Of a stretch of DNA of 27,857 bases, positions 1,626 through 18,355 are shown in pieces. Position 1 is the stretch's first letter. Each line of letters starts with the position of its first letter. The DNA is from an archaeon (GTDB lineage: Archaea; Aenigmatarchaeota; Aenigmatarchaeia; GW2011-AR5), in contig DATDXH010000092.1 of assembly GCA_035289405.1 (NCBI GenBank), forward strand, positions 1 through 27,857. The letters are read 5' to 3'. A program made the translations under genes and the position numbers. The notes under the pieces were generated by a model. It was not told the origin of the DNA. It saw nothing but the letters and a program-made list of their open reading frames with translations, and ran no database searches.

Positions 1626-2588
1626 ATGGACTGGAATGGCGTTAGAGTTCTTGTAACAGGCGCGGACGGGTTTATGGGTTCGCATCTTACAGAGCGGCTT
1701 TTACGTGAAAGGGCAGACGTTTCTGTTTATGTACGCGGAACATCTGACAGTGGCACTGTCCAATACAAGCTGAAAAATATAAACCACATACAAAAGGATC
1801 TTAAATCAATAGTTACTGGCAACATAGGGAATGCCGATTCTATAAAACTAATAGAAAAAAACAATCCACAAATAATTTTTCACCTCGCGGCCGATGCTTA
1901 TGTGCCGAATTCTTTCGAGCACCCTCTTGAGGTTATGGAAACAAATGTCATAGGCACACTAAATGTACTACACGCTTCTATGCACCTGAAAGAACTTCAG
2001 CAGGTTGTTTGTACATCTTCGAGCGAGATATACGGTTCTTCCAGCATACCCATAAACGAGGACCACCCACTCAACCCTACCTCGCCTTATGCCGCATCAA
2101 AGGTGGCTGCAGACAGATATTGCTTTTCTTACTGGAATACCTATAAACTACCCGTTGCGATAATAAGGCCGTTCAACACTTACGGCCCTAGACATACCTA
2201 TGACGTAATACCAAAATTCATCAACCTAGCTCTACAAAACAAGAACCTTACTATATACGGGACTGGAAACCAGACAAGAGATTTTACGTACGTCGACGAC
2301 ATGATAAGCGCATTTATTTTAATGGGATCGGAAAAGAAGGCTATTGGCCAGGCCGTAAATTTTGGCACTTCAAAAGACATAAGCATAAAGGATGTGGCCG
2401 AAAAGATAATAAAAATAAGCAGGTCAGCCGCAAGGACGGTGCATGTGAAAGAAAGACTTGCAGAAGTTACAAGACTTTGCTGCGATTACAATAAGGCTAA
2501 TAAGCTGTTTGGATGGGCCCCTACTATAGGGATAGATGAAGGTCTAAAAAGAAATATAGAATGGGCTTCTGCAAGTACAAAATTCTAG
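1626..2588 (+). CDS. NAD-dependent NDP-sugar 4,6-dehydratase, LegB-like
   Basis: VTGADGFMGSHL, TSSSEIYG, HPLNPTSPYAASKVAAD, RPFNTYGPR and EVTRLCCD match the LegB-like dehydratase group. Start moved to ATG 1626 (GTGAT site upstream); the ORF-track extension runs through the repeat array. Confidence 0.8.
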   Translation: MDWNGVRVLVTGADGFMGSHLTERLLRERADVSVYVRGTSDSGTVQYKLKNINHIQKDLKSIVTGNIGNADSIKLIEKNNPQIIFHLAADAYVPNSFEHPLEVMETNVIGTLNVLHASMHLKELQQVVCTSSSEIYGSSSIPINEDHPLNPTSPYAASKVAADRYCFSYWNTYKLPVAIIRPFNTYGPRHTYDVIPKFINLALQNKNLTIYGTGNQTRDFTYVDDMISAFILMGSEKKAIGQAVNFGTSKDISIKDVAEKIIKISRSAARTVHVKERLAEVTRLCCDYNKANKLFGWAPTIGIDEGLKRNIEWASASTKF

Positions 2589-2607
2589 ACATGAGGCAAT
2601 GATAACG

Positions 2608-3540
2608 ATGCGTATAATTATAATAGGCCCAACACTTTTGACAAGGCATTGTTTGGAGGCAATTATAACAGAAGGCAAAGATGAAATATTGGCTGTTTAC
2701 GTACTCGACGACACATTTGCATGGGTTAAAAGCCGTTTTGCAATTATGGATGATACAGCGCAAAAAAATAACATAAATCTTTACAAGGTATCAAATATAA
2801 ACGACAGGTCTGTAATTGATCAGATTAAAAAATTCCAGCCTGACGTAATTCTCGAGCTTGGCTGGTCCCAGATAATTTCACCTGAGATACTTTTGATACC
2901 TAAAAAGGGCTGTATAGGTGTTCATGCGTCATTGCTGCCTAAGAATAGGGGTGCTGCATCGCTTAATTGGGCACTTATCAAAGGCGAGAAGAAAACGGGC
3001 GTCACACTTTTTTATCTTGCTGAGAGGCCAGATGACGGTGATATAATAGCCCAAAAGGAATTCGCTGCGGACGAACGGGATGACATTGAAACGTTGCACG
3101 CAAAATCAGACCTCGCAAGCGTTGAACTTCTAATGGAAAATATGGGTGCTATAAGAAATGATACTGTTAAAAGAATACCGCAAGACATGAAACAAGTCAC
3201 GTACACACCTAGAAGAAAACCGGAAGACGGGGTAATAAGCTGGACAAGACCCTCCATTGAAATTTACAACTGGGTAAGGGCCCAGTCGCACCCTTTTCCA
3301 GGCTCATTCACATTTTGGAAAAACAAAAAATTATATGTGTGGCGCGTAAAAATTTCTGAATACAAGTCTGTCTCAAGGCCTGGAGAGATTTCCATGATTA
3401 AAAACAAACAGGGCGTACTTGTAAATACGACTGATAACATGATCCTCTTGGAACGTGTTCAATTTGATAATGGAATAGAGATGTGGGCCGATGAACTAGC
3501 AAGAAAATACAACCTTCAAGATGGTGATTTCCTTGGATAA
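2608..3540 (+). CDS. N10-formyl-THF-dependent formyltransferase (Fmt/ArnA N-terminal-like), probably a sugar N-formyltransferase
   Basis: GVHASLLPKNRG, PDDGDII and a C-terminal Fmt-type domain (PEDGVISW...EIYNWVRA...PFPGSFT). Alternative start 2599. Confidence 0.85.
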   Translation: MRIIIIGPTLLTRHCLEAIITEGKDEILAVYVLDDTFAWVKSRFAIMDDTAQKNNINLYKVSNINDRSVIDQIKKFQPDVILELGWSQIISPEILLIPKKGCIGVHASLLPKNRGAASLNWALIKGEKKTGVTLFYLAERPDDGDIIAQKEFAADERDDIETLHAKSDLASVELLMENMGAIRNDTVKRIPQDMKQVTYTPRRKPEDGVISWTRPSIEIYNWVRAQSHPFPGSFTFWKNKKLYVWRVKISEYKSVSRPGEISMIKNKQGVLVNTTDNMILLERVQFDNGIEMWADELARKYNLQDGDFLG

Positions 3541-4669
3541 TAACATAAATAATGCTATGTCATGGCTACTGAATTCCGGAATACAAAATACAAAAGACGA
3601 CAATACTGGCAGTTTTAATGCTTGGTATGACATGTCTACAGGAACCTACCCATTTATTTATTCAGAGATAACTGGGTACGGAATAAGTACACTGGTTTAT
3701 GCAAACTCTATCAACAAGGATGATGCCTACAAGGAACATGCAAAGACTGCGGCCAACTGGATTATAAATTTAATGACTGCGAATGGCAACATTATTGCAA
3801 GAATTTATTCTGGCCACAAACCTGATTTAAAGTATTTTGGTAGTAATGTATCTTACACATTCGATAATGGAATGGTTCTTTCTGGTCTTGTAAGTATTTA
3901 CTTGGCAACAAAAGATGACAAGTACCTACTAGCAGCGATAAAAATTGCAGAATCCATCTTGAAGACGCAAAAAAGTACAGGACTATTCAATGCAGCTTAC
4001 GATGCAGCAACCGGGGAATATATTGATATTCAGGACAAGTGGTCGACACAGTCTGGAAGCTATCACGCAAAGCTTGCCATAGGGCTTCTTGATTTGTACG
4101 AGGCAACACATAATAAAATTTTTAAAGACGCAGCGGTTGGCGTATGCAACGCATCACTTGGGTTGCAGGCTGATGACGGCAGGTTTGTAACACAACAGAA
4201 TGAGAACAGCACACATATGCATCCACACTGCTATTCGGCAGAAGGACTCGTCTACGCGGGAATTGGCCTTGGTGAAAAGCGGTTCCTTGATAGTGCCTTG
4301 CGCGCTGTTAAATGGGCCCTTGATAACCAACTTAGTAATGGTGGCATGCCGTGCAAATATGTCGATGGCAAATTCATTGAACATGAACGCAGCGATACGC
4401 TTGCGCAGGTTCTTAGATTAGGGGTAATCCTGAAGGATATCGGATTGCTCGTTGGTTATGAAAAGCGTCTGGAGCGGCTAGCTTCTAGGCTTGTTCAGTT
4501 CCAAAACACTTCAGTTGATAATAGCGGTGGATTTTTCTACGGAACGGAGCTTGACGGAACAAAAAAACCTCACCTAAATTCGTGGGTGACCATGTTTTCC
4601 ATACAAGCAATGCACATGTACAATAGTTACACAAAAGGCGAAAGAATAGAATTAAAGCCTTTTGTATAG
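3533..4669 (+). CDS. Uncharacterised alpha/alpha-toroid protein (prenyltransferase/squalene-cyclase-repeat-like)
   Basis: Repeated helix + Q-x-x-x-G-x-F motifs (QKSTGLF, QADDGRF, QLSNGGM) and YSEITGY motif. Start TTG 3533 proposed from GGTGAT 5 nt upstream; ATG 3521 and 3557 are alternatives. Confidence 0.6.
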   Translation: MDNNINNAMSWLLNSGIQNTKDDNTGSFNAWYDMSTGTYPFIYSEITGYGISTLVYANSINKDDAYKEHAKTAANWIINLMTANGNIIARIYSGHKPDLKYFGSNVSYTFDNGMVLSGLVSIYLATKDDKYLLAAIKIAESILKTQKSTGLFNAAYDAATGEYIDIQDKWSTQSGSYHAKLAIGLLDLYEATHNKIFKDAAVGVCNASLGLQADDGRFVTQQNENSTHMHPHCYSAEGLVYAGIGLGEKRFLDSALRAVKWALDNQLSNGGMPCKYVDGKFIEHERSDTLAQVLRLGVILKDIGLLVGYEKRLERLASRLVQFQNTSVDNSGGFFYGTELDGTKKPHLNSWVTMFSIQAMHMYNSYTKGERIELKPFV

Positions 4670-4679
4670 CCATAAGTTT

Positions 4680-5927
4680 ATGGATAAAGTTTTTTCTATT
4701 ATAGAAAAAGAAAAACAACGCCAGCTTGATACGTTAGAACTTATCCCTTCGGAGAACTACGTTTCGCAGGCCGTATTAAGGGCTTTAGGGTCTGAAATGA
4801 ATAATAAGTACTCTGAGGGTTACCCTGGCAAGCGCTATTACGGCGGCAACATTTTTGTAGATGAAATAGAGAACATAGCTATAGAACGTGCAAAGAAACT
4901 CTTTGGTACAAACCACGCAAACGTACAGCCCTATTCAGGCAGCCCAGCCAATATGGCGACTTGTTTTGCATTGCTGGAACCAGGTGAAAAATTAATGGGC
5001 ATGAGCCTTTCTTATGGTGGACATCTAACACACGGTCATGCTGTGAACTTTTCAGCCCGATATTACGGCTCTGCGCAGTACCCAACAGGAAAAGACGGGT
5101 GGCTAGACTACGATCTTATAGAAGAAATAGCGAGACGCGAAAGACCAAAACTTATTTTTTGTGGTGCAACAGCCTATTCGCGCGTCTTCGATTTTAGACG
5201 TCTCGGAGAGATAGCGACATCAGTGGATGCATTTCTTGTGGCCGATGTCGCGCACATAGCAGGTCTAATAATCGGGGGCGTTCATCCAACCCCAGTTGGC
5301 ATAGCTGATGTTATTACAACAACTACACACAAGACGCTGCGCGGGCCGAGGGGTGCGATGATATTGTGTAATGGCAACAGTTCTGACCCGCTCAAGGTGC
5401 CGGAAAAGACGCGCAATAACCTACCGTCTCTGATCGATCGTGCAGTATTTCCAGGCTTGCAGGGTGGTCCTCATAACCACACTACGGCCGGTATAGCTGT
5501 TGCTCTTGGCGAGGCATTGGAGCCATCCTTCGCTGAATATGCAAAACAGATAGTCAAAAACGCAAAAGTTTTGGGTGCGACTCTTATAGAGAACGGTCTT
5601 GATGTGGTCACTGGTGGCACTGATAACCACCTATTACTTCTTGACCTAACCAAAATCGGAATCACTGGCAAAGAGGCAGAAACATTACTTGATATTGCTG
5701 GAATAACTGTCAACAAGAATACAGTACCTTTCGATAAAAGAAAACCGTTCGATCCTAGTGGCATAAGACTGGGCACACCTGTCGTGACTACAAGAGGTAT
5801 GAAAGAAAGTCATATGGGGTTAATCGGCGACATGATTGTTGATGTTCTGATCAGGAAAAAGAAACCAGAATATGTTAGGGAGAGTGTGTTCGATCTTTGT
5901 AAAGACTTTCCAGCTTTTGCATGGTGA
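4680..5927 (+). CDS. glyA: Serine hydroxymethyltransferase, bacterial-type
   Basis: PSEN, NKYSEGYPGKRYYGG, NVQPYSGSPAN, GGHLTHG, PLP lysine in TTTTHKTLRGPRG, FPGLQGGP. Confidence 0.96.
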   Translation: MDKVFSIIEKEKQRQLDTLELIPSENYVSQAVLRALGSEMNNKYSEGYPGKRYYGGNIFVDEIENIAIERAKKLFGTNHANVQPYSGSPANMATCFALLEPGEKLMGMSLSYGGHLTHGHAVNFSARYYGSAQYPTGKDGWLDYDLIEEIARRERPKLIFCGATAYSRVFDFRRLGEIATSVDAFLVADVAHIAGLIIGGVHPTPVGIADVITTTTHKTLRGPRGAMILCNGNSSDPLKVPEKTRNNLPSLIDRAVFPGLQGGPHNHTTAGIAVALGEALEPSFAEYAKQIVKNAKVLGATLIENGLDVVTGGTDNHLLLLDLTKIGITGKEAETLLDIAGITVNKNTVPFDKRKPFDPSGIRLGTPVVTTRGMKESHMGLIGDMIVDVLIRKKKPEYVRESVFDLCKDFPAFAW

Positions 5928-5931
5928 TTGT

Positions 5932-6786
5932 ATGGCGGCACAAATACTGGACGGCATGAAAATAGCATCAAGTATAGAGGAAGATGTTAAAAGAGTGCTT
6001 AGTAATTCCGATGTCAAGCCTTCAATAGTATTTTTTGTTGTGGGCGACAACCAAGCAACCAAAGTTTACGTAAGGAAAAAACAGGAGGCATGTGAAAGGG
6101 TTGGAATTTTATCTAATGTTGTCTCATTTAATGGGGACGTTTCGGAGAATGAGTTGATAGAAAAAATACAAGAGGTAAACTCCTCCAACACAACCGGTAT
6201 AATAGTCCAGCTGCCGCTGCCAAAGCATATAAATGAGAACTTAGTCGTCTCATCTATTTCTACGGAAAAAGACGTGGATTGCATGCACCCAGAAAATATA
6301 GGCAAACTTCTCTACTCTTCGGAGCTTGTACCTTGCACTGTGTCAGGGATAATGAGACTTATAGAAGAAACAGGTACAAATGTCGCTGGCAAGAATGTGA
6401 CTGTGATAAACAGGCGACATATAGGTAAGTGCCTTTCCATACTACTGTTAAACATGAAAGCCACCGTGTCGGTGTGCGGACGTAACAGCCAACTAGAACT
6501 TTATACAAAACACGCTGACATAGTAATTAGTGCTGCCGGATCTCCGGGGTTGATAAAAAGAGACATGATAAAACCGGGAGCGGTTGTAATTGATGTTGGA
6601 ATAAGCATGTACGAAGGAAAAATAAGGGGTGATGTAGACGACAACGTCAGAGATATCGCCTCGTTTGTCACGCCTGTGCCGGGCGGCGTAGGTCCCATGA
6701 CAGTTGCAATGTTAATGAAGAATACGTCTGACATGGCTGTGAGAAACTCAATTAGCCATGATTTATACAAGAAACACAACATTTAA
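5932..6786 (+). CDS. folD: Methylenetetrahydrofolate dehydrogenase/cyclohydrolase
   Basis: YVRKK, VQLPLP, KDVD, PCT, VIDVG and TPVPGGVGPMTVAML; GGTGAT site before ATG 5932. Confidence 0.93.
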   Translation: MAAQILDGMKIASSIEEDVKRVLSNSDVKPSIVFFVVGDNQATKVYVRKKQEACERVGILSNVVSFNGDVSENELIEKIQEVNSSNTTGIIVQLPLPKHINENLVVSSISTEKDVDCMHPENIGKLLYSSELVPCTVSGIMRLIEETGTNVAGKNVTVINRRHIGKCLSILLLNMKATVSVCGRNSQLELYTKHADIVISAAGSPGLIKRDMIKPGAVVIDVGISMYEGKIRGDVDDNVRDIASFVTPVPGGVGPMTVAMLMKNTSDMAVRNSISHDLYKKHNI

Positions 6787-6811
6787 TTTTTGTTGTTACA
6801 CGGTGTAATTA

Positions 6812-7252
6812 ATGGAAACTAATTTGATATTATTGATCGCCCTTGGTATTGCATTTAATGTTTCTATAAGGCTAATCTTGCGAGGTTCAAGACATTTTAT
6901 AGGAGTAGATGCTATGCCGGCATTTCCAATTGCCGCTGGTTACCTCTACGGATTTACCGGCGGATTATGGGCGGGTATAGTGATTTCTGTAAGCTATTAT
7001 TTCATGGGTGGCAAGAACATTTCATACGCACCTCTTATAGTTTTAATTAACGCGCTCGTTGGAGCATTTTCTACATTATTTGCTGGCTGGACGTTCGTAA
7101 CGGCAGGATTTTTACTACTTTTTGTTTATCATGCGATTTCGCTGTTCGTAGTCTCTACGTTAAGCGAACCAGGGCCTGGATATTTCACTTTTATGGTGTT
7201 AAATCTCGTATCTTCCGGTTTGATAATTTATTTTGCCTCACAATTTATATGA
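6812..7252 (+). CDS. Small polytopic membrane protein, possibly ECF S-component-like
   Basis: 146 aa, almost entirely hydrophobic, about 5 helices; IAAGYLYGFTGGLWAGIV resembles the helix-2/3 G-P-x-x-G-x-x-x-G pattern of S-components. Confidence 0.5.
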   Translation: METNLILLIALGIAFNVSIRLILRGSRHFIGVDAMPAFPIAAGYLYGFTGGLWAGIVISVSYYFMGGKNISYAPLIVLINALVGAFSTLFAGWTFVTAGFLLLFVYHAISLFVVSTLSEPGPGYFTFMVLNLVSSGLIIYFASQFI

Positions 7253-7344: not shown

Positions 7345-8457
7345 ATGAAAATCGCCATCATAGTCGGAACAAGACCAGAAATAATAAAATTCAGTCCAAT
7401 AATACGTATATGCGAACGTGATAAAATAGATTATTTTGTAATACATACCGGGCAGCACTACTCGTATGAAATGGACAGCATATTCTTCAAGCAGTTGAAG
7501 TTGCCGCAGCCCAAATACAATCTTGGCATAAAATCTTCGGCGCCTCATCTACAGGGAGAACATACAGGCAAGATGCTGATAGAAATAGAAAAAATACTGC
7601 TGAAGGAAATGCCTTCTATAGTTCTTGTTCTTGGCGATACAAATACTGTTCTCGCGGGCGCACTAACGACGAAGAAAATAACTACTACCAAGTCTTTCAC
7701 AGGATTCGATATCAAACTTGGCCATATCGAAGCTTGTATAAGGAGCCACTGGGACGAGATGCCTGAAGAGGTGAACAGGAAAATAGCAGACCATTTATCG
7801 GATTTTCTTTACGCACCTACAGCCAAGTCAGTCGATAATGCCCATAGGGAGAATATAGACATGAGTAAAATAATTATAACAGGGAACACAATAGTTGATG
7901 CGGTTCATCAGATATCGGAAATAGCGAAAGATGTGAAAATATTGGATGACATGAAACTCGACGGGCAGAAGTATCTTGTTGCAACGATGCATCGCCAAGA
8001 GAATGTCAATTCCGAAAAAAGATTCGTAGGCATATTGAAAGGCCTCGAAAAAATATATAAGAAATATCGTATGCCAATTGTTTATCCTATACATCCCCGT
8101 ACACGAAAAATTATAGATAAGATGGGCATTGTGATGCCTGAAGGCGTGATAGAAACAGAGCCTCTGGGGGTTTTAGAATTTTTCCAGCTGCAGAAAAACG
8201 CATGTTTGGTGCTGACAGATTCTGGAGGAGTTCAGGAGGAAACATGCATATTGGGTGTCCCGTGCGTTACCCTCAGGGATAATACAGAAAGACCAGAAAC
8301 GCTTGATGTTGGAAGCAATATACTGGCAGGCGCCGACCCAGATGTAATACTCTCCTGCGTTGACGAGATGCTGACGAGGCCACGAGAATGGAAAAACCCG
8401 TTTGGCGATGGCAATGCAGCCGAAAAAATTATTCAACATATTCTTAAGAATGTCTAG
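7345..8457 (+). CDS. wecB: UDP-N-acetylglucosamine 2-epimerase (non-hydrolysing)
   Basis: GTRPEIIK, HTGQHY, GDTNT, MPEEVNR, TGNTIVDA, DSGGVQEE, RDNTERPE. Confidence 0.92.
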   Translation: MKIAIIVGTRPEIIKFSPIIRICERDKIDYFVIHTGQHYSYEMDSIFFKQLKLPQPKYNLGIKSSAPHLQGEHTGKMLIEIEKILLKEMPSIVLVLGDTNTVLAGALTTKKITTTKSFTGFDIKLGHIEACIRSHWDEMPEEVNRKIADHLSDFLYAPTAKSVDNAHRENIDMSKIIITGNTIVDAVHQISEIAKDVKILDDMKLDGQKYLVATMHRQENVNSEKRFVGILKGLEKIYKKYRMPIVYPIHPRTRKIIDKMGIVMPEGVIETEPLGVLEFFQLQKNACLVLTDSGGVQEETCILGVPCVTLRDNTERPETLDVGSNILAGADPDVILSCVDEMLTRPREWKNPFGDGNAAEKIIQHILKNV

Positions 8458-17977: not shown

Positions 17978-18355
17978 CTATTTTGGTGAATTATCTTTCT
18001 TATTTAGCCATTCTATCTCGGGAAACGTACCGTCCATTCTGCCGTCTTGGACATATTTTACACCGAGCTTCATGCATGTCCATGCCCGGGTCAATTCCTT
18101 GGAAAGATAACCAACATGATCTCTCATTATGCCTGGCACGTCTTCCACTATCTGTCTGTATATGTCTTGTGGCAGTTTGCCCACCCAGAATTTTTTAATG
18201 ACATTTATGTTTTTGTAATCGCAAAGACCGGCCTCGATGACATCATTGTTTATCCTTATCAAAAAGTACCCAATTGGATCCATCTCTTCGTCGCCTTTGG
18301 GCTTGCATTCCACTGCTTCAGCCTCGGTCTGCGGTTTTTTCATGTCAAAGTGCAT
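17978..18355 (-). CDS. DUF4346 domain protein
   Basis: DPIGYFLI...G...HVGYLSKEL..A...G..YVQD matches the DUF4346 pattern. Start 18355 or 18343. Confidence 0.75.
   Translation of the reverse strand: MHFDMKKPQTEAEAVECKPKGDEEMDPIGYFLIRINNDVIEAGLCDYKNINVIKKFWVGKLPQDIYRQIVEDVPGIMRDHVGYLSKELTRAWTCMKLGVKYVQDGRMDGTFPEIEWLNKKDNSPK

Follow-up and report, generated by a model that had tools for sequence, protein, structure and literature searches.

The window analysed here, a stretch of 27,857 nucleotides from an archaeon of the Aenigmatarchaeota, carries a tightly packed block of genes (1626-7252) that ends with the gene of a small membrane protein, the target of this study (Table 1). Exactly 25 nt separate the folD stop from the target ATG, as the preliminary description had it, and gene callers predicted the same target gene in other assemblies. 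The GlyA of the block matches bacterial-type PDB entries. No folate-synthesis gene was seen within the window, again as first described, and a search for folP and folK in the 74%-complete genome to which it belongs likewise gave no match. A scan for promoters and terminators gave results no better than chance level. The glycan cluster of the window (413-27857) has a dehydratase and an N-formyltransferase, yet no evident sugar aminotransferase among its ORFs; this region also encodes four radical SAM proteins of the B12-binding type and two PMT-family glycosyltransferases, and a stand-alone PterinBD-DUF4346 gene lies in the window at 17978-18355 (-).

Table 1. Genes of the block that ends with the target gene, and the downstream neighbour
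Feature	Position	Strand	Matches and remarks
LegB-like nucleotide-sugar 4,6-dehydratase, first gene of the block	1626..2588	+	TIGR04180, E 9e-79, below cut-off
ArnA-like formyltransferase, likely user of 10-formyl-THF	2608..3540	+	PF00551, PF02911; best NCBIfam match ArnA, E 8e-64, below cut-off
Uncharacterised protein	3521..4669	+	Weak alpha/alpha-toroid matches (GH76/GH88/pectate lyase); retained in the block at related loci
glyA, serine hydroxymethyltransferase, high-scoring (bacterial-like) type	4680..5927	+	PF00464, E 3e-155; PDB matches
folD, methylene-THF dehydrogenase/cyclohydrolase	5932..6786	+	PF02882, E 1e-52; PF00763, E 2e-31; ATG at 5932
Membrane protein with modelled S-component fold, short folate-linked form, 146 aa; last gene of the block	6812..7252	+	ATG to TGA
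UDP-GlcNAc 2-epimerase, downstream neighbour	7345..8457	+	PF02350; linkage in closest relatives only

The target protein is very hydrophobic (GRAVY 1.21); to call it all-hydrophobic, as was done at first, slightly overstates the case, since it contains four Lys/Arg residues (R20, R24, R27 and K68) as well as D33, E2, E119, H28 and H107. An AlphaFold2 model built from 16 sequences reached a pLDDT of 91.3 and a pTM of 0.87. DSSP assigned five helices to this model, of which the long one, 37-64, is taken to combine helices 2 and 3 with the conserved G47 at their junction; as modelled, the target has the S-component fold, with six membrane helices in the S-component arrangement. The best 12 Foldseek matches were all S-component chains, with E-values of only 0.07-0.7. 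In a VIA-align search covering 48,161 chains, the best 16 matches all had the S-fold (Z 14.2-8.7) and the first unrelated chain followed at Z 6.8; the scores were 14.2 for HmpT, 12.6 for ThiT and PanT, 12.5 for RibU, 11.1 for FolT (5d0y; rmsd 3.6, 140 residues aligned), 10.4 for BioY, 10.3 for MreD and 9.0 for BtuM. The Atlas structure match agrees with the S-fold (TM 0.77). High scores may arise by chance among helical bundles; here a single fold fills the list and the whole chain is covered, 140-146 of the 146 residues aligning to solved S-components. Structure comparison by all three routes thus supports the S-component fold that had been proposed, rather than an unrelated fold, and settles the initial worry that the protein is shorter than six-helix S-components: in the model, its shortness reflects trimmed loops and termini, with no helix missing. 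The S-component-like glycine pattern noticed earlier is conserved among 88 short-form sequences (G31, 100%; G47, 94%; G51, 80%). Direct Pfam and NCBIfam scans of the target and its family returned nothing above cut-off, and a profile search of PDB sequences with the family gave no match, so that the homology of the family is visible in structure only. Among 34 members, three matched PF12822 weakly (best E 0.005) and one each PF07155 and PF09515, all below cut-off; a weak match to PF07694 (5TMR-LYT) had an E-value of 0.02. Homodimer prediction for the target gave a score of 0.22, the mark being 0.42, which speaks neither for nor against a dimer.

The family profile matches 42 of 301 genomes of the phylum Aenigmatarchaeota. 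A well-supported branch of the tree splits the family into a short form (139-150 aa, identity down to ~25%), carried by 28 genomes from three families and 10 genera, and a long form or paralogue (about 170-195 aa), found in 20 genomes; six genomes have both. The carrier genomes are interrelated, and their completeness ranges from 74 to 97%. Named homologues come from Aenigmatarchaeota. A related-locus search with a narrower alignment recovered genomes of the Aenigmatarchaeota class only (one record labelled Micrarchaeota proved to be G195, of the same class) and no viral homologue, and clusters resembling the family, with scores of 0.92-0.95, are listed by the Atlas for Undinarchaeota and Woesearchaeota. 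The family is so far unannotated, its members being labelled hypothetical protein, and no description of it was found in the searchable literature, from which subscription journals are mostly missing. The long paralogue (L046:5939-6505, L057:1726-2298 and 18 other loci) combines the S-fold with an extra N-terminal helix and a basic N-terminus; its homology to the short form rests on comparisons other than the A2-versus-A3 score, which is inflated because A3 includes three short-form rows. Its neighbours, recognised by eye, are radA/Bud32 kinase-like, polymerase X-like, MinD-like and PCNA-like genes.

Gene context was scored by counting glyA, thyA, thyX, folA, folC and folD as folate-dependent genes. 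Such a gene lies within 2 kb of the short form in 26 of the 28 genomes and within 300 nt in 18, covering 9 of the 10 genera and three families; at the 20 loci of the long paralogue, some of them cut by contig ends, none was found within 5 kb. The nearest partner shifts across the tree (folD, thyA, thyX, folA, folC or glyA). With S denoting the S-fold gene, the arrangements include (i) glyA-folD-S, (ii) thyA-S-folA, (iii) glyA-S-thyA-folA, (iv) S beside thyX, (v) S beside an MtrA-ThyA-DUF4346 fusion, and (vi) a run in which two divergent short-form copies occur together, glyA-S-folC-S-thyA-folA (L092:4800-9581). The genomes are kin and the counts are not independent; still, the pathway is constant across many changes of partner gene. 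Metagenomic homologues repeat the link, and a few homologues, including that of G106, have no folate neighbour. The tie to folate genes put forward in the preliminary description is therefore upheld. The block has no thymidylate gene and serves sugar formylation both in the window and in the closest relatives, which leaves folate as the common factor of the contexts. The distribution of the short form is patchy, and 39 glyA clusters from non-carriers are without it, so that the short S-fold protein is not the sole route.

Three further observations concern these neighbourhoods. A fusion of MtrA, ThyA-like and DUF4346 domains is encoded in the same genome as the target (G000 contig C57:987-2456), and directly adjoins the S-fold gene in several relatives (L041, L095, L177). 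A single frame of 599 aa at L089:658-2457 encodes both a P-loop kinase domain and GlyA; the two are separate genes elsewhere in the genus, and the joined frame is either a real fusion or an assembly error. Three genomes of a family without the short S-fold gene have an OPT-family transporter gene within a few kb of glyA/thyX (L149:793-2400, L150:2060-3655, L153:7138-8721); this transporter may offer folate polyglutamates or peptides another way in.

The carriers use folate and appear not to make it. DHPS (folP), HPPK (folK) and FolT (TIGR04518) were each detected in 0 of the 28 short-form carriers, and GlyA in 27; in the remaining carrier (G266, 77% complete), which gave no glyA match, the short-form gene adjoins thyA-folA. 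Neither canonical ThyA, ThyX, DHFR and FolC nor a BT1-family transporter or any other folate importer was found in the target's 74%-complete genome. Across the 301 genomes, the GlyA proteins (PF00464) of Aenigmatarchaeota fall into two clearly separated types, with E-values of about 1e-150 or better and of 1e-52 to 1e-78, respectively. Carriers make up 24 of the 87 genomes with the high-scoring GlyA and none of the 48 with the low-scoring type only. Two GlyAs of the low-scoring type match 4BHD/4UQV best, which we take to be the Methanocaldococcus enzyme.

The preliminary description had suggested that the target binds folate like FolT, as the S-component of an ECF transporter. EcfT (PF02361) above cut-off was found in none of the 28 carriers, 10 of which are at least 90% complete, and in 28 of the 301 genomes overall; the four ABC ATPases of the target's genome resemble LivF/G, LolD and SufC types by sequence and neighbours. 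TIGR04518 did not match the target, nor did the family alignment match any NCBIfam model. Only 9 of the 88 sequences have the EcfT docking motif AxxxA (PMC4820897) in helix 1; the target itself has A10-x3-A14, but position 10 is mostly Leu or Ile. With EcfT not found in the carriers and AxxxA rare, the protein looks solitary, like BtuM, and not an ECF subunit. The pocket residues and the predicted orientation, described below, also speak against the FolT-like reading, which we have given up. Elsewhere in the phylum a conserved operon joins an HTH/CTP-dependent riboflavin kinase, a canonical S-component, EcfA and EcfT (L209-L212, L214, L215, L217-L221), and is probably a riboflavin ECF importer. 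A folate role considered for the EcfT-linked S-components that share an 'ID..PW' stretch was dismissed, since their genes lie behind that of the CTP-dependent riboflavin kinase and the profile comparison was not significant (probability 0.7%).

The conserved polar and aromatic positions of the 88 sequences are D33 (100%), H/Y62, Y106 (94%), F127 (99%) and N131. In FolT, folate is bound by R26, K36, D64, F80, T81, R142 and K145 (PMC4525288). Mapped by helix position, the essential R142, K145 and D64 of this set have no counterpart in the family: helix 6 has no conserved basic residue like R142/K145, helix 3 has no conserved Asp, and the invariant D33 sits at the end of L1, whereas the Asp of FolT is in helix 3. 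Folate, if bound, would therefore be bound differently. FolT (PDB 5D0Y, 4Z7F, 4HUQ; group II ECF) shares with the target the six-helix fold (Z 10.2-11.1, 139-141 residues aligned) and probably the ligand class, at 12-14% identity. Closer in structure is HmpT/PdxU2 (4HZU chain S, pyridoxamine; rmsd 3.4, 142 residues aligned), an ECF-dependent protein 13% identical to the target, whose pocket residues are E41, H84, Q87, Y120, N140 and Q143 (PMC4860826). Mapped by topology only, E41, Y120 and N140 correspond in place to D33, Y106 and N131, a partial resemblance in which each protein has an acidic residue in L1, a Tyr in helix 5 and an Asn in helix 6.

The distribution of charge sets the short form apart from known S-components. 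In 88 of 88 sequences Lys/Arg are in excess on the pocket side (L1, L3 and L5), with a mean of 4.75 against 0.83 for the termini, L2 and L4. As a control we took the S-components of the riboflavin-kinase/EcfA/EcfT operon: with the same windows in the same phylum, all 15 of these canonical proteins show the reverse bias (8-23 versus 0-3), the one also seen in FolT, which has an N-in topology (PMC4820897). The pocket-side windows are somewhat larger (42 versus 32 positions) and one or two of their basic residues could be ligand contacts; the stronger signal is that the other side has almost no basic residues. By the positive-inside rule, the reversed bias predicts that the short form is inserted upside down, with both termini outside and the resting pocket facing the cytoplasm; the canonical N-in/C-in topology, with the pocket loops outside, is predicted from charge for none of the 88. 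The same inverted core is predicted for the long paralogue, in which basic residues precede the extra N-terminal helix. Such a helix is also present in the 5TMR receptors, which with MreD (9dvb, Z 10.3) represent the non-transport S-fold; in 5TMR it starts outside and the core has the canonical orientation (PMC11109136), the opposite of what the basic N-terminus of the paralogue predicts. PF04093 (MreD) matched none of the 34 members, and the loci read showed no mreB/mreC or kinase neighbours and no signalling domain.

Two solitary S-fold proteins, BtuM and BioY, transport their vitamins without an ECF module, and for BtuM toppling, facilitated diffusion and metabolic trapping have been proposed (PMC6072759). 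Like the target, BtuM (cobalamin; 8ovv) and solitary BioY (biotin; 4dve) are encoded beside enzymes that could trap the vitamin; they differ in their gene partners, in having no detected sequence similarity to the target family, which is archaeal and predicted to be inverted, and in that transport has been demonstrated for them while the target family is known from sequence and model. We put at about 0.5 the probability that the short form is a solitary, BtuM/BioY-like folate carrier that works by facilitated diffusion and trapping in archaea that use folate without making it. We infer for the short form a ligand, a direction of transport and a topology as follows. Folate would be bound in a pocket closed by L1, L3 and L5, through D33, H/Y62, Y106, F127 and N131. 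With no ATP motor, the protein would topple in the bilayer, as proposed for BtuM, and let folate move down a gradient kept up by binding and conversion through GlyA, FolD, ThyA/ThyX, FolA and, where present, FolC. At rest both termini would be outside and the pocket turned toward the cytoplasm. In the window, GlyA and FolD would load the folate and supply 10-formyl-THF to the sugar formyltransferase, and in most relatives the folate would feed dTMP synthesis. Against an importer of folate stand the unmirrored key residues of FolT and a best structural match that is HmpT and not FolT. Furthermore, uniport of an anion is opposed by the inside-negative membrane potential, and a pocket predicted to be inside at rest also suits retention or export. 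A passive carrier moves its ligand either way whatever its resting orientation, and for this reason we rank the solitary importer with trapping first. A broader proposal, made more tentatively, is that of an upside-down S-fold family that handles folate without an ECF motor, be it as a carrier in reversed orientation or as an internal retainer of folate. If true, it would give DPANN archaea a route of folate acquisition and show the S-fold to work in both orientations.

The retainer taken by itself we consider unlikely. Here folate would be bound and not transported, the protein acting as a cytoplasm-facing retainer or as a membrane anchor for folate enzymes and so saving the cofactor that the cell takes from its host by contact. 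The reversed charge bias of the short form and the inverted core likewise predicted for the paralogue favour it, as do the rarity of folC near the gene (a few loci only) and the non-transport roles of the fold in MreD and 5TMR receptors (PMC11109136). A facilitated carrier, however, works in either orientation, so that inversion is compatible with transport; the changing neighbour enzymes speak against one fixed protein partner, and some of the basic residues could contact the ligand, as R26 and K36 do in FolT.

Improbable, and kept alive by the top structural match to HmpT and the partial resemblance of its pocket residues, together with the PLP requirement of GlyA and the absence of PdxS, is a carrier of vitamin B6 (pyridoxal phosphate or a precursor) that serves GlyA and only accompanies the folate cluster. 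PdxS was found in 0 of the 28 carriers and glyA lies within 5 kb at 22 of the 28 short-form loci, a context compatible with the other needs of this enzyme, PLP and serine. Yet the gene is often flanked directly by thyA and folA, or adjoins folC or thyX, none of whose products uses PLP, and G266 keeps it beside thyA-folA with no glyA match. The other GlyA type also requires PLP, and genomes with that type only are never carriers. No B6 salvage gene was seen adjoining the short form, pyridoxal kinase gave only partial matches of the PfkB type, none full-length, and a Z rank among chains of 10-16% identity does not identify the ligand.

Two further alternatives have, in our estimate, only a slim chance each. 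The first is a carrier of another input of the pathway (serine, deoxyuridine or thymidine), suggested by glyA being almost always close and by frequent neighbours of the dCTP deaminase-like, deoxyribosyltransferase and kinase kinds; it is countered by the sugar-formylation blocks, where folate and no thymidylate gene is shared, and by the fact that S-components mostly bind vitamins present at low concentration. The second is an exporter of pterins and p-aminobenzoyl-glutamate, products of folate breakdown by which the folate enzymes would be inhibited. An inward-facing pocket, as predicted, and basic loops suited to anionic cargo would agree with this, and the inside-negative potential favours anion efflux; no exporter with the S-fold is described in the literature examined, and import is the more obvious need of carriers that lack folate synthesis, the more so as the target's genome yielded no other importer. 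Least probable of all is an accessory membrane protein of a surface-glycan cluster with an incidental folate link, for, even though the closest relatives place the gene before UDP-GlcNAc 2-epimerase and one homologue is preceded by sugar genes and by no folate gene, the gene sits in thymidylate clusters without adjacent glycan genes in most carriers, and the constancy of its folate neighbours largely refutes this reading.

Overall, DPANN archaea keep folate-dependent enzymes without folate synthesis, and no paper naming the route by which they obtain the cofactor was found in the searchable literature. The short form is a candidate that is small and expressible and comes with a specific prediction of its ligand, and a family of hypothetical proteins now has an assigned fold and pathway. 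For the transporter field it would add, beside BtuM and BioY, a folate-linked S-fold protein without an ATP motor, and its reversed charge bias offers a direct test of the toppling model, which assumes an outward-facing pocket in the free S-component at rest. For the organisms themselves, the family is a candidate for how tiny, host-dependent archaea obtain or keep their folate.
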